From Candidatus Woesearchaeota archaeon (GTDB lineage Archaea; Nanobdellota; Nanobdellia; Woesearchaeales; SKGA01): a DNA stretch of 64,000 nucleotides. The translations under genes and the position numbers were made by a program. The DNA is taken from NCBI GenBank assembly GCA_046543005.1, contig JBKHAG010000002.1, positions 551-64,550 of the forward strand. Reading direction: 5' to 3'. The notes beneath the pieces are model-generated. The model saw nothing but the letters and a program-made list of their open reading frames with translations. It was not told where the DNA came from and did no database searches. Positions 4,300-36,865 of this stretch are shown here, in pieces (the first letter of the stretch is position 1; every line of letters begins with the position of its first letter).

Positions 4300-5271
4300 T
4301 TAATAACCTTTAATTTTTTTAGTCACTGGGTGGTATTGGTTGTTATCAAAGGCTTTTTGCTCAGGCATAAAGCGAAGTTTTTCCACAAGAGATATTGCGT
4401 TTCTCGTATCTTCTATAGTGTATCCTTTCCCGTTTAGTATGGATTGGTATACTTTTGTATGCAAGTCAGTAAATCCTTTTGAAAAGTCAAACTCTTCGTT
4501 ATTAATTGAAAGCGCGCGGTATGCTTTAGTCGTATGTTTACCTAGTGTTTTTAGATCATTTCTATCAACTGAAAGATACCACCTAACATTTGCTTTTTCT
4601 AAAGATAAAAATCCCGCCATTTTATGTTTTGGATCGTTAAGGTGTAGTTCTGCGTATTCTGGTTTTCCAAAAATCCACGTCAGCATATCAAAAAAATGAA
4701 CACCTATATTTGTCGCTACCCCTCCAGATTTTTCTATATCTCCTTTCCAAGAGTAATCATACCATTTTCCTCGCGGAGTTATATAATGTAAATCAATATT
4801 GTGCTTTTGCACAGAAGATTTTGAATCAACTTTCTTTTTCAAATCCAAAATAGCTTGGTGCTCTCGCAGTTGTAAAATAGTATAAATAGTGCCAGGATAT
4901 CTATCTTGGACTTCTAAAAGGCCATCAATATTTTTTTCATTAAGCACTATTGGTTTTTCACAGATAACATCTGCATCATTTCTCAGTCCAAAGCGAATAT
5001 GTGAATCGTGTAAATAATTAGGCGTGCAAATAGACACAAAATCTATTTTTTTATTTTTTTCTTGGCGTAGTTTATCTACATGTCTATCGAATCGTTCAAA
5101 TTCTGTAAAAAAATCAACATCTTCAAAATATGAATCAATAACACCCACTGAATCAGAAGTATCCATAGCAGCAAGAAGTTCATTTCCAGTTTCTTTAATA
5201 GCTTTTAAATGTCTTGGAGCAATATAACCGCCTAATCCCAATAATGCAAAATTTTTTTTAGCCATAAACAT
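4300..5271 (-). CDS. Gfo/Idh/MocA-family NAD(P)-dependent oxidoreductase (sugar-nucleotide dehydrogenase-like)
   Basis: N-terminal Rossmann motif FALLGLGGYIAPRHLKAI and the family-typical length. Confidence 0.75.
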   Translation of the reverse strand: MFMAKKNFALLGLGGYIAPRHLKAIKETGNELLAAMDTSDSVGVIDSYFEDVDFFTEFERFDRHVDKLRQEKNKKIDFVSICTPNYLHDSHIRFGLRNDADVICEKPIVLNEKNIDGLLEVQDRYPGTIYTILQLREHQAILDLKKKVDSKSSVQKHNIDLHYITPRGKWYDYSWKGDIEKSGGVATNIGVHFFDMLTWIFGKPEYAELHLNDPKHKMAGFLSLEKANVRWYLSVDRNDLKTLGKHTTKAYRALSINNEEFDFSKGFTDLHTKVYQSILNGKGYTIEDTRNAISLVEKLRFMPEQKAFDNNQYHPVTKKIKGY

Positions 5272-8529: not shown

Positions 8530-9663
8530 TTACTTTGAATGACGATCCGGAATGTTTATTGTTATAGTTCCTTGCTTTTCATTTATTGTGCTTACATAAT
8601 CTAAAGCCAAAAGTTCTTTTTTAAGTGCTGACCAATCTTGAATCTTTCTTTTTTTTGCAATAGTATCAAGCAATAGTTGTATTTGTTGGTAGTGTAAATA
8701 TAATAGTTCCCCTTTTTCTTGATTTTCTTGAGAAGATTTTGTTATAGTGCGTAATTGTTTTTCTTGTTTTTTTATAATGGTGTCAATTTTTGAAGTTGAT
8801 TTTTTTGCTTGTTGACGAGTTTTTTCTTGAGATTTTTTTACATTTTGTAAAACTACTTTTGCTAATGCCTGTGAAAACGTATCAACGAATTCATATGTTT
8901 GATCAGCTTGAGATTCTAAAATAAAAGGAAGAGCTGTTGTTTGATTTTGAATACAAGGATTATAACAATCAAATAGGCCTTGTAAAACGTCAAATAGTTT
9001 TTCGATGTCTTGTTGAGAAGAATCTTGCAACGATTTTTTTTGATCAAATTGTGAGCGAACAAGGACTTCTTGAGCAAATAATCCTCCTAGACCACAATCA
9101 ACTGCTAAAAAAGTCACTAAAGTATCTTTTGAAGAATTTTTTTGAAGACGATAAAACTCTTCTTTTGAAAGTGTTGGAATAACAGGTAAAGACAGTTGTG
9201 GAGTGTATTTTTGCTTATGAAGGAGCTTTGTTTTTTCGTTATAAATTTTTTGATGAAAAACACTAAGAATACTATTTTGCTCATCTACATAAATAATATT
9301 TCCTGTTGAGTATAATTCTATATATAGTATTCCTTTGCCTTGTTTTGTAGATAGGTGTAAGGCAATTGTTCTTTCAAAACCTATTTGTTGGATTTTTGTA
9401 ATAAAGGCGCCTTGAATTTTTCTTCGCAAGGACTGACAAAAACTTGGAGGAGTTTGAGGAAATTCAGGTTTAAAATCAGCAAGACAAATTTGTCCAGGTA
9501 AAGAAAGAAAAAGATGTTGTTTTTTTTTTAAAGGAACATGAAACGTGAATAAAAAATCAGGCGATTCTTTTTGTTGAAAGATTTTATCTATTTTTCCACC
9601 TTCTAAAACCAATAGTTCTTTGACAAAAAAAGAAAGTTCTAAAGAGGAAATTGTTGTATTCAT
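8530..9663 (-). CDS. NFACT-N domain protein (short RqcH/Tae2/FbpA-like ribosome quality-control homolog)
   Basis: N-terminus ISSLELSFFVKELL...GGKIDKIFQ matches the NFACT-N start. A lysine-rich coiled coil follows. Start taken at the internal Met, codon 18 of the track ORF. Confidence 0.55.
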   Translation of the reverse strand: MNTTISSLELSFFVKELLVLEGGKIDKIFQQKESPDFLFTFHVPLKKKQHLFLSLPGQICLADFKPEFPQTPPSFCQSLRRKIQGAFITKIQQIGFERTIALHLSTKQGKGILYIELYSTGNIIYVDEQNSILSVFHQKIYNEKTKLLHKQKYTPQLSLPVIPTLSKEEFYRLQKNSSKDTLVTFLAVDCGLGGLFAQEVLVRSQFDQKKSLQDSSQQDIEKLFDVLQGLFDCYNPCIQNQTTALPFILESQADQTYEFVDTFSQALAKVVLQNVKKSQEKTRQQAKKSTSKIDTIIKKQEKQLRTITKSSQENQEKGELLYLHYQQIQLLLDTIAKKRKIQDWSALKKELLALDYVSTINEKQGTITINIPDRHSK

Positions 9664-10892: not shown

Positions 10893-10966
10893 CTGAGTTG
10901 TTCATTTCATATCACAACCGTAGTCAAAAACACTTGGTTCTTCGTTGGTTGCTTATTTCATATCAC
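10893..10966. repeat. Direct repeat of a 17-bp unit (atttcatatcacaaccg), copies 54 bp apart; the second copy is the 3' end of nrdJ
   Basis: Seen in sequence. Both copies read GCDMK-stop on the minus strand. Confidence 0.7.
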
Positions 10967-13295
10967 AACCGCCTTTAAACCCACAACCTGCAGAACACTC
11001 TGTACAACCGCCAAGTTTGACCATTTTCCCTTTTTTGCATACCGGACAAGTATTACCAATTTCGGAACCACACACAACATCTTGTGTATGTGTTGTTGTA
11101 TCTGCTGGTTTTTTGAGTACTTCTTGAGAAGACTCTTCTTTAATATCGTTTTTAGAATCTTCAACACTAGAGGGAACTGCTTGACCAGATCCTTTATCTT
11201 CAAGATTTTTTTCACCTGTGTTTTTATCAGTTGATAAAATTTGTTCATCTCTGGAGCCATCTCTATAAATAGTCATTCCTTTACAACCTAAGTCATAAGC
11301 AAGTTCATAGAGTTGCATAGTGTCATCAACAGTAAAGTTTGCAGGAACATTTGCAGTTTTTGAAATTGAAGAATCTGTCCATTTTTGAATTGCTGCTTGT
11401 ACTTGTACATGTTGTTGAGGACCTAAATCCATTGCACCAACAAAAAAGTCTTGCAAAGAACCATCTTCTTTTTTTACATAATCTTTTACGATATCAATAT
11501 CCACTTCGTGAAAGCCTAATCTACTTTGTTGAAAATATTTAAACGCGAAAAATGGCTCGATGCCAGTAGATGTTCCAAGCATAGAACCAACAGTTCCTGT
11601 GGGTGCTTGAGTTGTTAAAGATACATTTCGCATTCCTTTTTCTTTTATTTTTTCTTGCACGTGTTGAGGAAGTCGTTGCACGAATTGACTTTTTAAAAAT
11701 TTCTCGCCATCATAATAAGGAAAAGATCCTTTTTCTTCTGCTAAATCAGCAGACATAGAATACGCCTCGCTCGTTATTGTTTTATAGAGTTTATCCATGA
11801 ATTCTAAACTTTCTTGGCTTCCAAAAGGAATACGCATTCGAAGAAGAACTTCTGCAAGTCCTAAAGTTCCACAACCTACTCGTCGTTCACTTTTTTGATT
11901 TTTTTCATTTTCCTCAAAAATATAAGGTGTTAAATCAATAACATCGTCTAAAAATCGTACAAGAAGTTGAGCAGATTGTTTGAGTTCTTCCCAATCAAAA
12001 TCATAAATAGGACCTATATTATCTTCTCCCGTTTTATAGAGAAAATTATTAAGAGCAAGATGACCTAAGTTACAAACGCCCCAAGGCGGAAGTCCTTGTT
12101 CCCCGCAAGGATTGGTGCAAACAATGTCATTATAATAATAGGAATTGCTTTGATCATTGTAGCGTCCAGAAAAAATTATTCCAGGCTCTGCGCTTTTCCA
12201 TGCACTACCAATAAGTTCATGCCATAATTTTCGTGCTTTAATAGTTTTATAAACTTTAGTTTTTCTACCATTTTTTTTCCATCGCCAAAGATTTCCATCC
12301 CAATACTCATCATATAATTTTTTAGTTTCAGGATCTTCAATATCAGGATATTCTAAAGACCAATCACTACCTGTTTTTACTGCTTCCATAAATTGATTAG
12401 AAACAAAAACAGAGATGTTTGCATTATCTAAAAAACCTATTTTGTGTTTGGAAGCGATAAATTCTTCTATATCAGGATGCCAGTCTGCAAGAGCAAGCAT
12501 AAGAGCTCCTCTTCGAGAACCACCTTGTTCGATTAGACCTGTTGCGTTTGAATATAAATTTCCCCAAGACACTGCTCCTGAAGATTTTCCATTAACGCCT
12601 TTTACCCGGGCATATCGTGGTCGTAGCGAACTTAGATTTATTCCTACGCCGCCGCCTCGACTCATAATTTCAACAAGTTCAAATAAAGTATCTTGAACAA
12701 TTGAACGCCGAGAATCTTTTGGTGAAGGGATAACAAAACAATTATATAAGGTTAAGTTTGATGTATAATTTCCTTTTTCGTCAACATTTGCTCCAGCCAT
12801 AATTCTTCCTGCTGGTTGAATGTAGCCTTTAAGAAGAGCTTGAGTAAATTTTTGTGCGTATTCATCTTTTTTTATACCTTCAACACTTGCTACTGCTCGA
12901 GCTACTCGACAATAAGCATCATAAATACTTTCTTCAGGTTTATCACATTTTAAAATATCAATTGCTTGCGTGTCATCTTTAAACGCGCCTGTTATAAAAT
13001 ATACTTGAACAATATTTCCTTGTTGTTTTGTAATAATTCCTAAATCTTTTTTTGGATATTTTGGGTGATCTTTTGAAATGGCAACGACTACATCTCCGAT
13101 GCCAATTTTATTTGCAATTGTTTTTTTTGCATAACGATCTAAAAAAATGATCAAACCCATTTCTTTAAGATGAGTAGAATTGTTAAGAATGTTTTTTGCT
13201 TGTTGACTTAAAGGTATTTTTTTTTGTTGTAATTCTTCAACGATTTTAACATCAAGAGTATTTTTTTGAAGAATTTTAGTTTTCATTTCTTGCAT
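10953..13295 (-). CDS. nrdJ: Class II (adenosylcobalamin-dependent) ribonucleotide reductase
   Basis: SRGGGVGINLSSLRPRYARV, active-site NPCGEQ...CNLG, TIYRDGSRDEQIL, and a C-terminal zinc-ribbon/redox tail CPVCKK...CTECSAGCGFKGGCDMK. Confidence 0.9.
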   Translation of the reverse strand: MQEMKTKILQKNTLDVKIVEELQQKKIPLSQQAKNILNNSTHLKEMGLIIFLDRYAKKTIANKIGIGDVVVAISKDHPKYPKKDLGIITKQQGNIVQVYFITGAFKDDTQAIDILKCDKPEESIYDAYCRVARAVASVEGIKKDEYAQKFTQALLKGYIQPAGRIMAGANVDEKGNYTSNLTLYNCFVIPSPKDSRRSIVQDTLFELVEIMSRGGGVGINLSSLRPRYARVKGVNGKSSGAVSWGNLYSNATGLIEQGGSRRGALMLALADWHPDIEEFIASKHKIGFLDNANISVFVSNQFMEAVKTGSDWSLEYPDIEDPETKKLYDEYWDGNLWRWKKNGRKTKVYKTIKARKLWHELIGSAWKSAEPGIIFSGRYNDQSNSYYYNDIVCTNPCGEQGLPPWGVCNLGHLALNNFLYKTGEDNIGPIYDFDWEELKQSAQLLVRFLDDVIDLTPYIFEENEKNQKSERRVGCGTLGLAEVLLRMRIPFGSQESLEFMDKLYKTITSEAYSMSADLAEEKGSFPYYDGEKFLKSQFVQRLPQHVQEKIKEKGMRNVSLTTQAPTGTVGSMLGTSTGIEPFFAFKYFQQSRLGFHEVDIDIVKDYVKKEDGSLQDFFVGAMDLGPQQHVQVQAAIQKWTDSSISKTANVPANFTVDDTMQLYELAYDLGCKGMTIYRDGSRDEQILSTDKNTGEKNLEDKGSGQAVPSSVEDSKNDIKEESSQEVLKKPADTTTHTQDVVCGSEIGNTCPVCKKGKMVKLGGCTECSAGCGFKGGCDMK

Positions 13296-13490: not shown

Positions 13491-15383
13491 TTATAATTCA
13501 TCTAAAAGTAATTCTCCTACAACATCATCAACAACTTCTTGAACGGACTCTTCAACTGCGTCATCTTCAAAAGCCCATAGTTTGGTTTGTTTTTTAGTCA
13601 TTAACGCTTGAGAATCTCTACAACCGTCTCTATATACAGTAATACCTTTACATCCTAATTTGTGAGCCATTTTCATAATTTTTGCGATGTCGTCTTGAGA
13701 ATAAGAATGAGGTAAATTAATAGTTTTGGAAATAGAATTATCAATATATTGTTGAAAGACAGCCATGACTTTAAGGTGCTCTACAGGAGAAACATCCATT
13801 GCTGTACGATACACTGATTTAAAATCATCATCTAACCAAGAAATATTTTGAACAGTATCAACAAACTGAAGTTGAATTTTAGCAGTTCTATCAATAGGCA
13901 AGCCATCAACTGCTTGTTTAAAATAAGGATTAACAATCGAATATTCTTTACCTTGTGAAGTTGTTGTGGTATAGGAAAATGCATACACGGGTTCAATGGA
14001 CTGAGAGGATTGGGCAAGTAAGCTTGTTGAACCTGTTGGTGCAATAGAAGTCATTGTTGCGTGACGCATAGGTCTATCCCACGTACAACGTTCAAACTCA
14101 GGAAAACTACCTCGTTGCTTAGCAAGATCGTGTGAAGCGCTATGTGCTTCCTCTTTAATAATAGACATCCACTCTTTGATAATCTGAAGCGACTGTTTGC
14201 TGCCATAAGATACCCCTAAAGCAAACAATACATCTGCAAACCCCATTACACCAAGACCTATCTTTCGAACTTTAAGAGAAGCAGATTTTATTTTGTCATG
14301 AGCATATACGTGCATGTCTAAAGAATTATCTAAAAAACGTACAGCAACACGAACGGCATATCGTAAAGCGTCAGCATCCAATACGAGACCATTTGTTTTT
14401 TTTGCAGACTCATCTTTTTTTAAAAATTTTGAGAGTACAAGGTGGGTGTAAGGGACACCTTCAAAAGATTCCAACTCGTATTGTCCACACGATCCAGTGC
14501 ATAAAACTTTTTTATCTTTAAAGGGATATGTTTTATTCATCAAATCAATAAAAACAATACCTGGATCGCCTGTCTTCCAAGCTTGTTCAACGATTTCATC
14601 AAATAAAGCTCGAGCTTTAATAGTTTTTACAACTTCATTGTTTCTAGGATTACGAAGCGAAAAATCACCGTCTGATTCTACTGCTTTCATAAAGTCATCA
14701 GATACTGCAACCGATAAATTAAAATTTTGTAATTTAGAAATATCTTGTTTTACACGAATAAATTCTAAAATATCAGGGTGAGAAATGTTTAAAATAGCCA
14801 TGTTAGCCCCTGCTCGTCGTCCACCTTGCAAGATTGCACTAAATGAAGTATCAAAAATATGCATCACACTAACAGGACCAAAAGCAACATTTTTCATACC
14901 TTTAACATCATCTTTTCGAGGACGAATTTTAGAAAAATTAAAACCTAAACCACCACCTTTTTGTTGAACAGAAGCAGCGATTTTTAAAATTTCAAAAATA
15001 GTATCTAAACTATCAGGAACATCAAGAGCGTGATCAGAAAATAAAGATTGAAACGTATTACCAGCATTCATTAAAATGGGAGAAGCAGGCATAAAATATC
15101 CACTCGCTAAATGATGAAAAAATGTAAGTGTCCATTTGTCAACATCAGAAGAATAGTTTTTTTCTGCTTGTGCGATATTTTTTGCAACCCTGTAAAATAA
15201 TTCTAAAGGCGATTCAATAATATTTCCTTGATCGTCTCGTTTTAAATATCTTTGTTTGAAAAAATCTTTAACGACAGGACTCATATCTAATTGTTTTTCA
15301 TATGAAGAGATATCACTTTTTGAAAGCAATGACATAGGCGCGGTAGAATCCTTCTCTGACATAAAAAATACAAAGTACTTCAA
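13491..15383 (-). CDS. Class II ribonucleotide reductase paralog, divergent and lacking the C-terminal Cys-rich tail
   Basis: QKGGGLGFNFSKIRPRKDDV and TVYRDGCRDSQAL are conserved. The NPCGE position reads GSCGQYE. The protein ends in an acidic tail with no CxxC pair. Confidence 0.75.
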   Translation of the reverse strand: MKYFVFFMSEKDSTAPMSLLSKSDISSYEKQLDMSPVVKDFFKQRYLKRDDQGNIIESPLELFYRVAKNIAQAEKNYSSDVDKWTLTFFHHLASGYFMPASPILMNAGNTFQSLFSDHALDVPDSLDTIFEILKIAASVQQKGGGLGFNFSKIRPRKDDVKGMKNVAFGPVSVMHIFDTSFSAILQGGRRAGANMAILNISHPDILEFIRVKQDISKLQNFNLSVAVSDDFMKAVESDGDFSLRNPRNNEVVKTIKARALFDEIVEQAWKTGDPGIVFIDLMNKTYPFKDKKVLCTGSCGQYELESFEGVPYTHLVLSKFLKKDESAKKTNGLVLDADALRYAVRVAVRFLDNSLDMHVYAHDKIKSASLKVRKIGLGVMGFADVLFALGVSYGSKQSLQIIKEWMSIIKEEAHSASHDLAKQRGSFPEFERCTWDRPMRHATMTSIAPTGSTSLLAQSSQSIEPVYAFSYTTTTSQGKEYSIVNPYFKQAVDGLPIDRTAKIQLQFVDTVQNISWLDDDFKSVYRTAMDVSPVEHLKVMAVFQQYIDNSISKTINLPHSYSQDDIAKIMKMAHKLGCKGITVYRDGCRDSQALMTKKQTKLWAFEDDAVEESVQEVVDDVVGELLLDEL

Positions 15384-15405
15384 GTATAAAAAACTACCGA
15401 AGTAA

Positions 15406-15567
15406 GCCTTGTTTAAAATATTGTAAATTTGTATACTGCGCGTTATTTTGATTATTATTATCGCTTTTGGACAAATAACGAGCAGGCGCTAAACAGCTAA
15501 GCACATAGCCAGATTACTGTTTGTGTTGTAATTGACAGGACACATAAAAACTCCTTTTTGAACAATG
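15406..15567 (-). repeat. MITE-like repeat, copy A; inverted relative to copy B, with an internal short (ATT/ATA)n tract
   Basis: About 160 bp, near-identical to the reverse complement of 21605..21791. Termini are CCTTGTTYAAA ... TTTAAACAAGG (imperfect TIR). Confidence 0.7.
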
Positions 15568-15788
15568 TCCCAAAGTAAAAATATTTAAAAAACAGCTTCT
15601 TCTTTAAAAAGAATATTTTTTATAGTATAGCTTCAATGACTTTTTTGCAAGAGTAGTAATGTTGCAACGCCACACTTGTAAAAATCAGCAAATGCATGTG
15701 CCCCATAAAAGCGACAATATACTTTTGTATACCTTTAGGATGCAAGCAAAAGAACAAAACATTTAAAGAAACAAACACAAACAACTAT

Positions 15789-17369
15789 ATGAAAAATATA
15801 TATCAACCTGTTCGCTTTTTTTTAAATTATCAAAAAAGTAAACGATATCCTTATCGCGTCCAAAAAAAAATACTTCGTTATATTCTTAATGAGCAAAAAA
15901 ACACTGCTTATGGAAAAGCACATTCTTTTTCATCTATTTCTTCGGTTAAAGAATTTCAAAAAAAGGTTCCAATAACAAATTATGAAGATATAAAACCATA
16001 CATTCAAAAAATAAAACAAGGAGAACAAAACATTTTAACAAAGAAAAAAGTTATCTTTTTTGCAACTTCAAGTGGGACAACTAGTGCATCAAAATATATT
16101 CCTGTAACTAGCGATCGTATGAAAATATTTACCAACGAATTTCAATTATGGTCTACTCGAGTTTTAAAAAAAGAACAAATAAAAGTTCTTGGAGGTAAGA
16201 CGCTTTACTTTGCAACAGCAAGTAATCTTGGAACAACAAAAGCAAACATTCAATTTGGAAATATTACAGGATATATGGTGCAAAAGCTACCTGCAATGCT
16301 TAAAAGAAAATTAGTTTTACCTGCTCATGTATACAACATAAAAAATGTTAAACAAAGAACTGAAAAAATTGCGCTAGTATCATTACAAGAAGATGTTAGA
16401 CAACTGGGTTTTTTTGCACCAATAGAGACAATTCTTTTTTTAGAATATATATATAAAAATAAAAAAAAACTTATAGCTAAAATAAAAAAAACAAATCCTA
16501 AAAGAGCAAAAGAATTAGAAGAACTCCCTGAATTTAAAGCAAAATATTTCTGGCCCAAACTATCTCTTATTAGTTGTGTAAAAACGCCCAGCACAATATT
16601 TTATCTTGACCAATTATTTGAACTCATAGGTAAAAAAATTCCTACTCGCGATCCAGGTATTTATGCAAGCGAAGGACGAATTAGTTTAGGAATTGTTAAT
16701 AACTCGAGAAATGGAATTATTGTTGCAAACACCTCATTTTTTGAGTTTTGTGAATGTACAAAAAATGCCACGTTTAAAGATCCTGTTTGCATACATAAAA
16801 TAAAAAAAGGAAAAAAATACAAAGTTCTTATAACCACAACAGAAGGGCTATATCGCCACGATATTGGAGATATCGTTGAAGTAAGAGGATTTAAAAAAAA
16901 GCTACCAATAATTCGTTATGCAGACAGGGATAATTATATCAATGTTGCAGGAGAAAACATGTCTGAAATTAACCTTGTAACTTGTGTCAAAGAAGAATTA
17001 CAAAAACAAAATATAAAATCTAAACACTTTACAGTTTGTCCATGCATAAGCTCGCCAAAAAATAAACCTTGTTATGAGGCATTATTAGAATTAGATATGA
17101 CTATTAGTGATAAAAAGCTTTCACGGTTTGCTAAAGAACTTGAAAAAAACCTTCAAGAAAAAGTTCTCACCTATAAAAAGGCACGAAATGAATTTGGAAG
17201 GCTTGAAGCATTGCAGGCAAGTATTGTTAAAACACAAAGTTATGCAAAACACACTACAAAAAAGCAACAAAAGCAAAAAGGACAAATTAAACCAATTCTA
17301 GTAAGTAAAGATCCTACATTTAGAGAACAATTCGACATTATTAAAAGTGTAACAGCAACAAAAAAATAA
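15789..17369 (+). CDS. GH3-family acyl-acid amido synthetase-like adenylating enzyme
   Basis: VPITNYEDIKPYIQKI..GE.NILT...VIFFATSSGTTSASKYIP matches the GH3 N-terminal signature. Start taken at the internal Met (MKNIYQP). Confidence 0.65.
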   Translation: MKNIYQPVRFFLNYQKSKRYPYRVQKKILRYILNEQKNTAYGKAHSFSSISSVKEFQKKVPITNYEDIKPYIQKIKQGEQNILTKKKVIFFATSSGTTSASKYIPVTSDRMKIFTNEFQLWSTRVLKKEQIKVLGGKTLYFATASNLGTTKANIQFGNITGYMVQKLPAMLKRKLVLPAHVYNIKNVKQRTEKIALVSLQEDVRQLGFFAPIETILFLEYIYKNKKKLIAKIKKTNPKRAKELEELPEFKAKYFWPKLSLISCVKTPSTIFYLDQLFELIGKKIPTRDPGIYASEGRISLGIVNNSRNGIIVANTSFFEFCECTKNATFKDPVCIHKIKKGKKYKVLITTTEGLYRHDIGDIVEVRGFKKKLPIIRYADRDNYINVAGENMSEINLVTCVKEELQKQNIKSKHFTVCPCISSPKNKPCYEALLELDMTISDKKLSRFAKELEKNLQEKVLTYKKARNEFGRLEALQASIVKTQSYAKHTTKKQQKQKGQIKPILVSKDPTFREQFDIIKSVTATKK

Positions 17370-17392
17370 GCATAATAAATCATAAAAACATT

Positions 17393-18880
17393 CTAACAAC
17401 ATAAGTGTTTATACTCACGAACACTACAAGCCTTGGCATTTATTCCTTTTTCTTTACATAAAACAACGAGGTTTTTTGCTAAAACTCCGTGCTCGCAAAT
17501 AAAGACATATGAATTTTTTGAAGAGAAAAAATTAGTTTTTTTTGTATCTGTTTGCTTGGTTAAAAAAGTATCTATATCACTTATTAATTCGTAATAATAA
17601 CGAGAAATCGTTTGAGGGAGAACATCTTTTTTTGCAATAGATAAACGTCTTGTATCTACACAAATAGCGTCTTGTACATCTTTTTTAGAAAAATCGCTTT
17701 TGGGTGTTTGCACATATAAAGCTGTTTTCGCACTGTATTTTGTTGCACTCTCACAAAGCAAATGCACGAGTTGTGAAAAATCAGGCAAACGAGTCATATC
17801 TTTGAGTTGAGGAGTCGCGGTAACGCTTTTTCCTTGAGATAAATCACAATACTCTTTTACTTGTGAAGAAAAAGAAAAAGTTCCTATTTTTCTTGCTATT
17901 TGAGTAATTTCTTCTTTATCCATAGTAATAAGAGGGCGAAGAACAAATGCATCTGAACGTGAAGCAATTGCTTGTAGACTCGCCATGGTTTGAGAACTTT
18001 TTTGTGCAAGTGATTCTCCTGTAACAATTGCGCTATAGGCGTGTTTTTTTTCAAACCAAGAACCTATTATGTAAAACGCTATTTTTAAAGCCAATTGGCT
18101 AAAACAAGGTTTAACTGTTTTTTGTATAACAGATACTAATTCTTTAGCATTAACACGGTACAATACCGGCTCGTGATTAAAATTATATCTGTCGCAAATA
18201 TATGTAAAAAGCTGCGCGATGTGAGAAAATGTTGTATCATCGTTTGCTAAATCAATATAAACATAGTCTAAAGCCACACCTCGTTTGAGCATTAAATAAG
18301 ATGCAACAGGACTATCAATACCTCCTGAAAAAAGCGAAAGTGCTCGTCCTGAAGATGCTGGAGGCATACCACCAATTCCTTGAATAAAATCAAAATAAAC
18401 AAATGCTTCATCGTTTCGCACTTCAATAAAAATATCCACATCAGGAGTATCTAAATCAACCCCTGCAGACTCATCAAAAACTTTTTTTGCTATTGCTTTG
18501 GAAAGATCCAAAGAGGAAAAATCATGCTTACCCACTCGTCGAGAACGTACTGCAAACGATTTTTGACAAACACGATCACCCACAACAGTAGCTACTTTAT
18601 TAGCAAGATCTTCAAGTGACGAAAAATTAATTTTTTTAGCTAAAGAAAAACTTTGCACACCAGGTACGAGTTGTAAGGAATCAACAAGGTCAAGAACTTG
18701 AGTAGAATGAATGATAAATCGACCGCCGTAGTTTTTTACATATGCGTCTACTTTTGTATCTTGTATTACATCTTTAATTGCAGATACGTATAAACGTTCA
18801 AAAAAAGGACGTTTACAGGCACTTTTTAAAGCGACTTCACCATATCGAAGAAGAATCGCATCGGGTTTATCAAAATCCAT
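17393..18880 (-). CDS. thiI: tRNA sulfurtransferase ThiI, with a C-terminal rhodanese-like domain
   Basis: THUMP-like N-terminus, PP-loop SGGIDSPVASYLM, and a C-terminal CEHG...CxxxxxC region. Confidence 0.85.
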   Translation of the reverse strand: MDFDKPDAILLRYGEVALKSACKRPFFERLYVSAIKDVIQDTKVDAYVKNYGGRFIIHSTQVLDLVDSLQLVPGVQSFSLAKKINFSSLEDLANKVATVVGDRVCQKSFAVRSRRVGKHDFSSLDLSKAIAKKVFDESAGVDLDTPDVDIFIEVRNDEAFVYFDFIQGIGGMPPASSGRALSLFSGGIDSPVASYLMLKRGVALDYVYIDLANDDTTFSHIAQLFTYICDRYNFNHEPVLYRVNAKELVSVIQKTVKPCFSQLALKIAFYIIGSWFEKKHAYSAIVTGESLAQKSSQTMASLQAIASRSDAFVLRPLITMDKEEITQIARKIGTFSFSSQVKEYCDLSQGKSVTATPQLKDMTRLPDFSQLVHLLCESATKYSAKTALYVQTPKSDFSKKDVQDAICVDTRRLSIAKKDVLPQTISRYYYELISDIDTFLTKQTDTKKTNFFSSKNSYVFICEHGVLAKNLVVLCKEKGINAKACSVREYKHLCC

Positions 18881-19071
18881 AAAAAAAGAACAATAAGAGG
18901 TTATTTATAAAAACAACGGGAAAAAGATACTCTATGTGAGATAAAACAATAAAATAATGAAAATAATAAGAAATAAAAAATATAAATATATTCTCGATAT
19001 AAAAAAAATCGTGACCTTAATACTTCTTAAATATAATCAGCACTATGCTCCTAGCAACTTAATATACGCAA

Positions 19072-19812
19072 CTAATCGTTGTCAACTCGAGGCGCAAGTA
19101 CAAAAGAAAGTTCTACTTTATCTTTAACAACATAACTTATTTTTAAAGGATAATCTGTGCTAAATTCAACACGTACAGTATCGGAAAGTTTTGATCCTTG
19201 AATTATTTTTTTTAAGTATTCAATAGAATATTTTGCTTTAACGTGCTCTTGTGTACTTTCAATAGTTGTTTGGGAATCGCCTGGAATTTCAACAGTAGCC
19301 TTAGAAAGGTCGCCTTTACTTGCAATCACAAAAGTTTCTTTTTGAACTCCAAAAGTTACGCTTTCACCAACAACATCCACGTCATCTACCGCGTCATTAA
19401 GTAATGAAGAAAGCGTAGATATTTTTGATACAAATTCTAAGGAAGGAATTTTTTGTTCTTTATCTTCAATATCAATAAGTGGAAGAAAAAAGGTTCTTGT
19501 AGACGTTGATTGTAAAACTATTTTTAATTTATTTTCATCTTGTTCTAACACTAACGTATCTGAAGATTTAGTTCGACGAAGAATTTGTTTTAAACTGTTT
19601 AAGTTTACTGTAAGGTTAGTATCTTCATCTAACTCATAACCAACAAAAGAACTAGCGGGAAGACGAAAAGCCACCATTGCCACATTAGCAGGATCCATCG
19701 CGATAAGTTCAACAAGATCTTTTGAAACTTTAATCGTTGCTTCAGTCACTATTTCTGAAACTATTGCTAGGCCGTCTTTTAGATATTTTGGTTCTGCTAA
19801 AGTTAATTTCAT
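19072..19812 (-). CDS. pcn: DNA polymerase sliding clamp PCNA
   Basis: 247 aa with the two-domain PCNA pattern (LKDGLAIVSEIVTEATIKVSKDLVELIAMDPANVAMV...). Start taken at the internal Met. Confidence 0.85.
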   Translation of the reverse strand: MKLTLAEPKYLKDGLAIVSEIVTEATIKVSKDLVELIAMDPANVAMVAFRLPASSFVGYELDEDTNLTVNLNSLKQILRRTKSSDTLVLEQDENKLKIVLQSTSTRTFFLPLIDIEDKEQKIPSLEFVSKISTLSSLLNDAVDDVDVVGESVTFGVQKETFVIASKGDLSKATVEIPGDSQTTIESTQEHVKAKYSIEYLKKIIQGSKLSDTVRVEFSTDYPLKISYVVKDKVELSFVLAPRVDND

Positions 19813-19898
19813 AAGTATCACGTAAGTAGTAGTAAACGAGCTAAAGAAGGCGCCGTATATAAAGATTTTGCTTGTAGAGGCTCTGAAAAGATACTTAC

Positions 19899-21212
19899 TC
19901 ATTCAAAAGATGTTTGTACGCCTAAAACTAGTTTTTGACATTTTGTGCACGAAAGCCCTAATTTTGATATTCGTTTACAAAAAGCCTCTTCCATAAGGGG
20001 TTCTGCATGGGCAGGAATAACAACTTCTGGTTTAATAAGGTCAACAAAATCATCAAGATCTTTACCGGCGCCATGACCAGAAGAATGAATAGAAGTAAAA
20101 AGAGAAACATTGTTTTCTTCAAGTCGTTGTTCTAATTGTGCTCGTTGGCGTTGAATTTTTACAGAAGGAATAACAGAACAAGAAAAAATAACTGCGTCTT
20201 GAGATGAAAATAAAAATTGACCTCTACTCATCCTATCTAAAACCGCGCCAGGTTCTCCTTGATGTCCTGTTACCACGATAACATAGTTTTGAGGATGGTC
20301 TTCGTTTGCTAAAAATTTTTTTACTTGACGAGCATAAGTAAAACATTTACCACGAACAGTTAAATCAACAATACCCACATCTTTTGCTGCGCGAATATAA
20401 CGAGTTAATGAACGACCCAAAAAAACAACTTTTCGATTAAGCATGTCTGCAAAATCACAAATAGATTGCAGGCGAGATAGTTGTGAAGAAAAGGTAGAAA
20501 TTACAATGGCTCGTTTAGAAGAGACATCATTTTTTAGATCAAATAATAATTGTCTTGCGTCTTGTTCACTAGTTGCGTATTTATCTTCTTGAGCGTATAA
20601 GGAATCTAATAATAATATTTTTGTTTTTCCTTGCAAGGACTTAATAGCAACAAGATCTGTTGGTTTTTCAAAAGGATGACGTTGATCGTTTTTAAAATCG
20701 TTACCGTATACGACAACGCCGTAAGGTGTATGAAAAGCAATAAGCGCGCTTTGAGGAATTGAATGTGCAACATGGATAAATTCAACGCTTACTTTTGGAG
20801 AAAGTCGTATTTTTTTACCTGTTTTAACAGCTTTTACTTCAGGATTTACTGCGTGGTCTTTACTAAACGATTGTATAAGTTTAGCAGTAAAAGGTGTTGC
20901 GTATACAGGGCGTTTTATCTTATTATACAAAAAAGGAATAGCACCGATATGATCTAAATGTCCGTGAGAACAAAAAATTCCTCGTATAAAAAGTTGTTTT
21001 CGTTGTAAAGGTTTAATATCAGGAATGGCGCCAGCGTTGACTAATTTTCTATACACATGTTTTTTATTAAAAAAATCATTTCCTGTAAGTTCAATATAGT
21101 GTTCTAAATGAACACCCATATCACAAATAAATGCTTCTTCATCTACTATGATTGCAACACAATTTTTACCCACCTCACCAAAACCACCAAGTGGAAGAAT
21201 ACTTAATCCCAT
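19899..21212 (-). CDS. Archaeal beta-CASP ribonuclease (RNase J-like, metallo-beta-lactamase fold)
   Basis: ILPLGGFGEVGKNC at the N-terminus and the HGHLDHIGAIPFL metallo-beta-lactamase motif. About 440 aa. Confidence 0.75.
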   Translation of the reverse strand: MGLSILPLGGFGEVGKNCVAIIVDEEAFICDMGVHLEHYIELTGNDFFNKKHVYRKLVNAGAIPDIKPLQRKQLFIRGIFCSHGHLDHIGAIPFLYNKIKRPVYATPFTAKLIQSFSKDHAVNPEVKAVKTGKKIRLSPKVSVEFIHVAHSIPQSALIAFHTPYGVVVYGNDFKNDQRHPFEKPTDLVAIKSLQGKTKILLLDSLYAQEDKYATSEQDARQLLFDLKNDVSSKRAIVISTFSSQLSRLQSICDFADMLNRKVVFLGRSLTRYIRAAKDVGIVDLTVRGKCFTYARQVKKFLANEDHPQNYVIVVTGHQGEPGAVLDRMSRGQFLFSSQDAVIFSCSVIPSVKIQRQRAQLEQRLEENNVSLFTSIHSSGHGAGKDLDDFVDLIKPEVVIPAHAEPLMEEAFCKRISKLGLSCTKCQKLVLGVQTSFE

Positions 21213-21292
21213 ATGAACACCAAAACTATTTTTTTCAACGAGTTTTCAAAGAACAACACTAATTTCAAGTAGCTATACGCGATTTGAAAAAG

Positions 21293-21550
21293 TGGTGCGG
21301 GGAAAGGGACACACAATACAGGAGACAGTTATCTGTATTCAAAATACAGGTAATGTTTACTCTCGCTGCGTTTTTGAACCCTTGTAGGCACTAAGCCAAC
21401 AGATGACTCACATGATTCTTCATCGCAACGCATCCTCTGATGCGATATGCTCAGCACTCAAATGCCTTGAGTCTGTCCCGTTTGGCCACTCCGGCGCCAA
21501 CGAAAACGGATGTTGGAAAACTTCATTTGACGACTCCGGCATCCCCGCAA
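21293..21550. ncRNA. Candidate structured non-coding RNA, about 250 nt, GC-rich, family unassigned
   Basis: GC-rich island in AT-rich DNA. The ends pair (gcgggga ... tccccgc), nested by gggaca ... tgtccc, with several internal perfect hairpins (cgcatc-ctct-gatgcg, aatacag...ctgtatt, ccaac...gttgg). Confidence 0.35.
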
Positions 21551-21604
21551 ACTCACAAAACAAAGGAACCAATAAAGACTTTATAAAACTACTGGAGATA
21601 GTGG

Positions 21605-21791
21605 CCTTGTTCAAAAAGGAGTTTTTATGTGTACTGTCAATTACAACACAAACAGTAATCTGGCTATGTGCTTAGCTGTTTAGCGCCTGCTCGTTATTTG
21701 TTCCAAGCTGATATAATAATAATTATAATAATAATAATGATAATAACGCGCAGTATACAAATGTACAATATTTTAAACAAGGCCAAAGATA
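21605..21791 (+). repeat. MITE-like repeat, copy B, with an internal (ATA)n microsatellite
   Basis: Near-identical to the reverse complement of 15406..15567. The ATA-rich tract at 21711..21746 is longer than in copy A. Confidence 0.7.
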
Positions 21792-21888
21792 GCATGTACC
21801 CTAAAAAAAGCAATAAAAATAATAATTTAAAAAAGTGTAGGGCAAAATGCAAGAAAAGTACACCTAAGCACATAGCCCTTAATAAGCG

Positions 21889-22302
21889 TTAAGAAAGTTG
21901 AGAAAGTTTTTTTTCGATTGTTGCAAGTGATTCTTTTAGTGCCTCTTCAGGAGATGAAGAATGGGTTTTATTTTTTGAAGAAGATTGAGATTGTTTTTTA
22001 GAAGTAGGCGTTTTTGTTGACGCTTTTTTTGTTATTTTTGAAGAAGCGTTTTGTTTTTGTTGACGCTTTTTTTCTTGAGCAACGAGTTCTTGATGAGGAA
22101 GTATATCAAAAAGATCTTGATACGATTTTTTTAAATCAGTCATTTGTGTAGAAACTTGTTCAATTAAAGCAGATTTTTCTTTTCGAATTTCAAGTAATGA
22201 ATAATATTGTTGCGAAGAAAGTAAAGACCGTTTTGCAATTGTAAGTAGTGCCGACTGTAGGGGTTGATTGTCTTTTACTTGTACAAAATAATCATTTACC
22301 AT
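21889..22302 (-). CDS. Coiled-coil protein with a K/S/T-rich tail (hypothetical); third gene of a three-gene operon
   Basis: Starts YFVQVKDN then heptad-rich helix. No known motif. Confidence 0.4.
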   Translation of the reverse strand: MVNDYFVQVKDNQPLQSALLTIAKRSLLSSQQYYSLLEIRKEKSALIEQVSTQMTDLKKSYQDLFDILPHQELVAQEKKRQQKQNASSKITKKASTKTPTSKKQSQSSSKNKTHSSSPEEALKESLATIEKKLSQLS

Positions 22303-36535: not shown

Positions 36536-36865
36536 CTAGTCTTCTTGTATGATACTGTCTTTTTCTTCTTTGAATGCAATGTATTCATAGGCTTTTTCTA
36601 ATGCTAAAATTGCTTTTGGAAGATCATTTACTCGTAAAGAATGAGAACTTTTCCAAGATCCGTCTTTATCTTTGTAATTTCTTTCCAAAGAAATTGTTCG
36701 AAACAGGCGAGGTGTTCCGTCTGAACTTGTTGTTTCATTCGCCCATACTGTCGCGTTGACAGGGCTTGCTCGAAAACTTTTTTCGGGCTTATTTTTTCCC
36801 ATATTTACTTCATTTTTTTCCATTGTGGTATCTCCTTGGTTATCCCATTTTATTTCACTTAACAA
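36536..36865 (-). CDS. Putative PC4/YdbC-like single-stranded nucleic-acid binding protein
   Basis: VNATVWANETT...LFRTISLERNYKDKDGSWKSSHSLRVNDLPKAI resembles the PC4-fold pattern. Stop is 3 nt from the radA start. Confidence 0.35.
   Translation of the reverse strand: MLSEIKWDNQGDTTMEKNEVNMGKNKPEKSFRASPVNATVWANETTSSDGTPRLFRTISLERNYKDKDGSWKSSHSLRVNDLPKAILALEKAYEYIAFKEEKDSIIQED

Follow-up and report, generated by a model that had tools for sequence, protein, structure and literature searches.

Insertion sequences (ISs) of the IS6 family have terminal inverted repeats (TIRs) of 15-20 bp, with a GG tip and the motifs cTGTt and caaa, and 8-bp direct repeats (PMC7986276). ISfinder holds two derivatives of this family, 227 and 336 bp long, that are transposable elements of the miniature inverted-repeat type (MITEs) (Varani et al. 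2021, PMC7986276). The end consensus of the bacterial IS6/IS26 elements is GGTTCTGTTGCAAA. Archaeal IS6-like elements mostly start with GG, keep G7, have no G10, carry TIRs of 12-22 bp and mostly make 8-bp duplications (PMC6807381); among them, ISSte1 (pTC) and ISSis1 (pARN4) of Sulfolobus have TIRs of 14-18 bp that directly abut an 8-bp duplication (Harmer and Hall 2019, PMC6807381). In archaea, MITEs are a familiar type of element and have already been reported in the DPANN lineages, where a census done in 2024 with MITE-Tracker found high densities, including one Woesearchaea genome with 105 MITEs per Mb (PMC11602168). Here we describe a pair of inverted repeats in a 64-kb stretch of contig JBKHAG010000002.1 (positions 551 to 64,550; hereafter the window, to which all coordinates refer). 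The analysis traced the window to contig CAYPEB010000004.1 of a metagenome-assembled genome (MAG; GCA_964409805.1) of a DPANN lineage, labelled Candidatus Nanoarchaeia archaeon at NCBI. We consider it likely that the two repeats are copies of a non-autonomous MITE that was moved in trans by a DDE transposase, most likely an archaeal IS6-like one.

The element resembles the IS6-family MITE derivatives in that it is short and non-coding, has both IS ends with the GG tip and the TGTT...AAA motif, and is associated with an 8-bp duplication. It differs from them in being shorter (165-182 bp), in residing in a DPANN host and in having no known parent IS. ISSte1 and ISSis1 have the same type of termini, but they are autonomous elements of 735-746 bp that encode a DDE transposase of 215-217 aa. 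Like the cellular MITEs of DPANN and Woesearchaeal genomes detected with MITE-Tracker (PMC11602168), the element is short, intergenic and TIR-flanked and lies in a small genome, although here only two copies are present per 64 kb. The element therefore adds to a known class and calls for no new mechanism. It documents transposon activity in an ultra-small and poorly sampled Nanoarchaeia lineage.

Two inverted copies of a short non-coding element

Copy A of the element lies on the + strand at 15405-15569 (165 bp), between the divergent genes for ribonucleotide reductase (RNR; 13491-15362, -) and a GH3-family protein (15789-17369, +). Copy B lies on the - strand at 21603-21784 (182 bp), between a gene for a hypothetical protein of 137 aa (21889-22302, -) and a tRNA-Leu(CAA) gene. 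A repeat search of the window returned the two copies as two pairs of inverted arms, 15459-15565/21607-21713 (107 nt, 94%) and 15406-15461/21728-21783 (56 nt, 95%), and no second repeat of comparable size. The global alignment of the refined elements has 156 matches, 7 mismatches and 21 gap columns, which corresponds to an identity of 156/163 aligned positions between flanks that are otherwise unrelated. Homology spans 15405/6 to 15565(9) in copy A and 21603(7) to 21784 in copy B. Within it, a core of 68 nt is common to the two copies with zero differences, and the window has exactly two occurrences of a 43-nt core, compared with none expected from shuffled sequences. The repeat search, the shuffles and the global alignment all show that the near-identical inverted pair reported in a preliminary description of this DNA is present far beyond chance. 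The coordinates given there were correct within a few bases, except that 21785-21791 is flank rather than element.

Nearly all gaps between the two copies fall in the loop of an internal hairpin, which consists of an (ATT/ATA)n tract. This tract is longer in copy B, with a difference of 17 nt, and it was rightly recognised before as the main difference between the copies. In copy A the hairpin covers 15436-15485 (+; CTGCGCGTTATTT ... AAATAACGAGCAG) and has a short (ATT)n loop; in copy B it covers 21687-21753 (-), and the loop contains the expanded microsatellite (about 21711-21746). Stop codons interrupt all six reading frames of the element. The GC content is 0.324 in the window, 0.24-0.31 in the flanking intergenic DNA and 0.32-0.34 in the whole elements, and it reaches about 0.39 in the core alone. 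That the copies are richer in GC than their surroundings is thus only weakly true.

The TIRs, initially placed at about 11 bp, were revised to 14-15 bp (GGCCTTGTTYAAAA). They are best preserved in copy B, where they match at 13/14 positions, or at 14/15 if an extra T/A pair is counted. The left TIR of this copy is at 21771-21784 (-), so that the copy starts with GGCCTTGTTTAAAA; the right TIR is at 21603-21616 and reads GGCCTTGTTCAAAA on the + strand, so that the copy ends with TTTTGAACAAGGCC. The TIRs of copy A have decayed to 10/14-16, with the tips AGCC... and ...AATGTC. Its left TIR (15405-15418, +; AGCCTTGTTTAAAA) has a G to A change at the tip, and its right TIR (15556-15569; GACATTGTTCAAAA on the - strand) has a degenerate tip. 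The end signature of the element can be written as GGCCTTGTTYAAAAT...TTTGTATACT, and end-like motifs in the window are confined to the two copies.

To compare the target-site duplications (TSDs), we placed the element boundaries at the GG tips, aligned 8 bp on each side and derived P-values from 200,000 random site pairs drawn from the window. With the exact element boundaries, the left (15397-15404, +; CCGAAGTA) and right (15570-15577, +; CCAAAGTA) flanks of copy A agree at 7/8 positions at zero offset (P-value ~0.0015). In copy B, the left flank (21785-21792; CTATCTTT on the - strand) and the right flank (21594-21601; CTATCTCC on the - strand) agree at 6/8 positions with a 1-nt offset, an extra A at 21602 preceding the TIR (CTATCTTT versus (A)CTATCTCC; P-value ~0.04). 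The same procedure applied to two known elements as a positive control returned perfect 8-bp duplications directly abutting the TIRs, namely TTTGTGAT for ISSte1 (pTC 776-1521) and TTTTTCTC for ISSis1 (pARN4 14087-14821). Overall, the check for a TIR/TSD structure found both components at both copies.

Insertion sites are empty in related lineages

A search with RNase J found no close relative among the GTDB representative genomes. The nearest available relatives are Logan contigs that form two groups, L003/L004/L005 (RNase J 78% identical in amino acids, about 75-82% in nucleotides) and L006/L007 (74% in amino acids). Gene order and orientation in these contigs are identical to those of the window: hypothetical genes, tRNA-Leu, RNase J, PCNA, ThiI, GH3 on the opposite strand, and RNR. 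There is no trace of the element in L003-L007 wherever the contigs cover the site. In particular, site B is empty in L003 and in L006/L007, and site A is empty in L003/L004/L005, the only relatives that cover it. The spacer between the 137-aa gene and RNase J measures 307 bp in L003 and 677 bp in the window, and the spacer between GH3 and RNR measures 183 bp and 427 bp, respectively. At site B, the alignment with L003 resumes at the TATA box of the tRNA gene, right after the element. At site A, when the element and one copy of the TSD are deleted in silico, the resulting sequence aligns with L003 across the junction. With the element missing at site B from two separate lineages of relatives, the parsimonious explanation is that it was inserted in the lineage of the window.

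The two copies are independent insertions, both intergenic and both 12-15 nt upstream of an archaeal TATA box. The left end of copy A lies 12 nt upstream of the TATA box of RNR (TTTTTATAC, 15384-15392), which, like the leaderless ATG at 15362, is conserved in L003. In copy B it is the right end that is close to a promoter, 15 nt upstream of the conserved TATA box of tRNA-Leu (TTTATAAA, 21580-21587).

The 6-kb block enclosed by the two copies (GH3, ThiI, PCNA, RNase J and tRNA-Leu) has the same orientation as in the relatives without the element. The ancestral orientation of the block and the presence of a direct duplication at each copy indicate two simple insertions, with no net inversion since. 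The suggestion that the block could invert by recombination between the copies holds in principle, but there is no sign that this has occurred. Two other scenarios were rejected. An intramolecular replicative inversion of the IS6 type is not compatible with TSDs that are not split between the copies and with a block that is not inverted relative to the relatives. A compound or pseudo-compound transposon does not fit a block that is syntenic in L003-L007 without the elements, nor copies that are inverted and have their own TSD each.

The insertions appear to be fixed within the species, and the element is present in three conspecific datasets. A second MAG (GCA_048618355.1) is 99.7% identical over 7.3 kb and has an identical copy B. 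In three Logan contigs of SRR11308339 (L028, L031 and L033, at least 99.9% identical), copy-specific variants are joined to the expected flanks. Their breaks fall within the repeats, which is the behaviour expected of a de Bruijn graph. L028 and L033 end in the MITE copies, and L031 ends at about 21487, in the exon of tRNA-Leu that directly precedes the D-arm intron. Assemblies of the locus are thus fragmented by the MITEs and by the conserved tRNA exons, inside which short-read contigs end. We rejected the contig breaks as a means to infer extra copies of the element: they are uninformative, as they are accounted for by the pair of copies already described and by these exons.

A related element that shares the ends but not the interior

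We scanned a collection of metagenomes with the pattern GCCTTGTTYAAAA-N(130-160)-TTTTRAACAA. The scan returned 17 stretches, a number near chance expectation, and 16 of them are chance matches that agree with copy B at 6-12 of the 35 positions outside the pattern and have flanks agreeing at 0-5/8. The remaining stretch (Ga0114934_10136375, GC 0.33; hereafter L009) agrees with copy B at 20/35 of these positions. Its ends are GGCCTTGTTCAAAA...TTTTGAACAAGCCC, with full GGCC/GCCC tips, and it has in common with the element TTTGTATACT, placed at an equal offset on the left, and CTCCTTTTTGAACAAG, on the right. Overall, L009 has the same 33-nt and 17-nt ends as copies A and B, and its interior is unrelated to theirs. 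Its flanks, GAAAAAAC and AAAAAAAC, agree at 7/8 positions, corresponding to an 8-bp duplication. The gene next to it has a sole detectable homologue, which is found on an archaeal contig together with a tRNA-intron endonuclease and ribosomal protein S17e.

The combination of conserved ends, unrelated interior and matching duplication length indicates non-autonomous elements that are recognised by one type of transposase. Conservation restricted to the ends would not be expected of an RNA gene or a regulatory module. The family, with its 14-bp and tentatively IS6-like ends, occurs in at least one further archaeon from the environment. If a parent IS were found, the family could be used as a marker of how DPANN archaea and their hosts exchange mobile elements.

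Other searches for further copies gave no matches. Patterns based on the ends returned none in three scans of viral contigs, and sensitive blastn of the element found none in plasmid and phage collections. A chimeric six-frame peptide of the element, used to seek spurious open reading frame (ORF) calls, found nothing among 5.8 billion proteins.

Origin and family of the element

The description of the pair as MITE-like and non-autonomous is supported by the 8-bp TSDs, the empty sites, the related member L009 and the lack of any detected transposase. On the last point, which had been stated before for the window, Pfam found no transposase among 30 window ORFs, and tblastn with the ISSte1 transposase (E <= 10) returned nothing in the window or in 34/36 other fetched loci (pARN4 and pTC being excluded). 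In the most likely course of events, the conserved ends, 33 nt on the left and 17 nt on the right, would have been recognised by a transposase encoded elsewhere. The target would have been opened by staggered cuts at a spacing of 8 bp, and the element would then have been inserted there. The interior, composed of the hairpin with its (ATT)n loop and of the 68-nt common core, would be passenger sequence. After insertion, the copies would have drifted to the present 4% divergence, with decay of the tips of copy A, one or two mismatches in the TSDs and slippage of the microsatellite. Given such drift, the copies are probably old and no longer mobile. A host function would not be necessary to account for the location of the copies, as the positions just outside the TFB recognition element (BRE) and the TATA box may be sites that tolerate insertion in a compact genome. 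Insertion directly upstream of BRE/TATA is, in any case, tolerated in this compact archaeal genome.

The family to which the ends belong can be proposed from their sequence. Reading GGCCTTGTTCAAAA from the tip, the features are G1, G2, T6-G7-T8-T9, C10 and A12-A14. In comparison with the bacterial IS6/IS26 consensus, the ends match at 9/14 positions and have no G10. When checked on the records, ISSte1 and ISSis1 share with them G1, T6-G7-T8, C10-A11-A12 and the lack of G10, although their TIR, G[T/A]GTGTGTCCAACAAT, has only 8/14 positions in common with that of the present element. The GG tip, G7, the TGTT...AAA motif and the 8-bp duplication fit the published archaeal elements, so that the ends may be IS6-like, with about even chances for and against. 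This assignment is tentative because no parent transposase was found.

Several observations weigh against the MITE explanation or its IS6-like variant. Only two copies are visible, in an analysis that covered this contig and short conspecific contigs of the same locus, and a 20-mer of the core has no exact occurrence in 185,579 species-representative genomes, in 241 million metagenome records or in IMG/VR. Neither the window nor the fetched loci yielded a parent IS or a transposase associated with such ends. The TSDs are imperfect, and that of copy B requires a 1-nt offset. At site B, the divergence of the intergenic DNA from the relatives precludes a base-by-base reconstruction of the empty site. 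Finally, the match of GGCCTTGTTCAAAA to IS6 ends is partial both for the bacterial consensus and for the end of ISSis1, and 8-bp duplications are also made by ISL3 and ISH6, which have GG/GGC tips.

Alternative explanations

The two repeats could also be intergenic or regulatory DNA that recombination or gene conversion, rather than transposition, duplicated from one site into the other, in which case the ends and the flanking repeats would be coincidental. The presence of two copies only, the poor inverted repeat formed by the tips of copy A and the imperfect duplications can all be read in this way. However, homology stops exactly at the TIRs in copy B, and three independent insertions have 8-bp flanking repeats, one of them being L009, whose ends are the same and whose interior differs. 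Moreover, neither site has the sequence in the relatives, and hence there is no ancestral source locus. We therefore regard a copied segment as very unlikely. Even harder to credit is an artefact of assembly or binning, in which mis-joined or duplicated sequence would mimic a repeat. It is true that the source is a MAG contig and that, in another sample, the contigs of the short-read graph end within the repeats. Nevertheless, the copies are distinguished by 7 substitutions and by the tract difference, and each has unique flanks; in addition, an identical copy B is present in an independent MAG (GCA_048618355.1), and independent Logan contigs join the copy-specific variants to the correct flanks.

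A different type of explanation starts from a short fragment of the core that lies outside the copies. The fragment is 18 nt long (21860-21877, +; ACACCTAAGCACATAGCC), matches the core at 17/18 positions (15493-15510 in copy A, 21662-21679 in copy B), is inverted relative to copy B and sits in the 3' untranslated region (UTR) of the 137-aa gene. The preliminary description reported it as a 14-bp fragment located 70 bp beyond copy B in the opposite orientation. Presence and orientation stand, the exact 14 nt are now placed at 21864-21877, the distance is 76 bp and the match extends to 17/18. The alignment score is 31, compared with 16.5 +/- 2.1 in shuffled sequences (about 6.8 standard deviations above). 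The match is non-random and its origin is unexplained. We rejected the possibility that the spacer 21785-21888 (103 nt) is the remnant of a decayed second copy, since similarity is limited to the 18-nt island. A long hairpin between the fragment and copy B, as had been proposed, is indeed predicted in the fold of a read-through RNA, where pairing of the fragment with the core is the dominant long-range helix in both the minimum-energy and the centroid structures; the sequence match is its sole support.

Based on this match, the element might be the gene of a small RNA of about 115-135 nt, which would start near G15438-15442 from the TATA-like TTTAAAATA (15412-15420), would stop at the T5 run at 15555-15559 and would regulate the mRNA of the 137-aa gene through pairing of a core segment with its 3' UTR. 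Such a gene would be compatible with a MITE origin. The plausible spacing of the TATA-like and oligo-T motifs, the non-random antisense match in the neighbouring 3' UTR, its prominence in the predicted read-through fold and the identity of the 68-nt core in the two copies are all in its favour. Conversely, TATA-like strings are common at 32% GC and both motifs are unspecific in an AT-rich genome, and no second target site lies near copy A. In L009 the box is weaker (TTCAAAATG) and the interior is entirely different, so that the conserved parts are those of transposon ends. Rfam gave no match at the gathering threshold over the whole window and chance-level matches only at E <= 10 over 15300-22000, and ARAGORN gave no indication that the element derives from a tRNA. 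The fold of copy A is not better than those of shuffled sequences (z = -0.45), while the z of -3.7 of copy B is due to the pairing of its terminal repeats; folding of single sequences returned no structure beyond this TIR pairing and one hairpin. A small-RNA gene is thus an unlikely explanation. Slightly less likely still is a scenario in which the MITE would have been domesticated as a regulatory RNA, pairing with the 3' UTR in trans or, in read-through transcripts, in cis, and in which, separately, the inverted pair would flip the 6-kb block in part of the population. If true, this would be a transposon-born antisense regulator in a DPANN archaeon. A precedent is reportedly offered by Saccharolobus solfataricus, where Maertens and colleagues are said to have described in 2013 transposon-derived antisense small RNAs, the RNA-257 family, that target the 3' UTR of an mRNA. 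Here too a repeat-derived stretch is complementary to the 3' UTR of a nearby gene, but the resemblance consists of sequence complementarity only. Taken together, the evidence discussed above favours a non-autonomous MITE.

Genomic context of the insertions

The identities of GH3, ThiI, PCNA and RNase J, previously assigned without database searches, were confirmed by Pfam, with GH3 encoded on the + strand and the other three on the - strand. The GH3-family gene (15789-17369, +) encodes a protein similar to acyl acid amido synthetases and is kept in the syntenic relatives of this DPANN archaeon. The family is better known from plants and some bacteria.

Pfam also identified two RNR genes, at 10953-13295 (-) and 13491-15362 (-). 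They encode diverged large subunits of 780 and 623 aa in tandem, an arrangement that is kept in L003-L005. The public call of the second gene (645 aa) starts at 15428, within copy A. The start shared with the relatives is the ATG at 15362, which gives a protein of 623 aa (624 aa in L003) and is located about 22 nt downstream of the conserved TATA box. The start at 15428 is a misprediction caused by the MITE insertion, which misled the choice of the start codon. In practice, caution is advised at this locus, since short-read assemblies break at the repeats and the RNR start call is drawn into the element.

The GC-rich stretch beside copy B is the tRNA-Leu(CAA) gene (21293-21548, -), which encodes its CCA and contains three introns, one of 45 nt in the region of the D arm, one of 61 nt at the canonical 37/38 site and one of about 63 nt in the T loop. 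The gene is missed by ARAGORN and Rfam; once the introns are removed, ARAGORN calls a tRNA-Leu(caa) of 87 nt. In L003 (about 4840-5100) the gene has no T-loop intron, and in L006/L007 (about 1-440) it has no D-arm intron and a much longer T-loop intron. The variation in intron content among close relatives implies that tRNA introns were gained or lost recently in this group of Nanoarchaeia.

A GC-rich island at 36696-36775 was examined for a hidden RNA gene and none was found. The 137-aa hypothetical gene next to copy B contains a 24-nt direct repeat (GTTTTTGTTGACGCTTTTTTTGTT) at 22010-22033 and 22053-22076, whose two units are 96% identical and 43 nt apart. Finally, a stretch of 46 nt in the same gene (22034-22079) is 80% similar to a stretch located 13 kb away (8786-8831).

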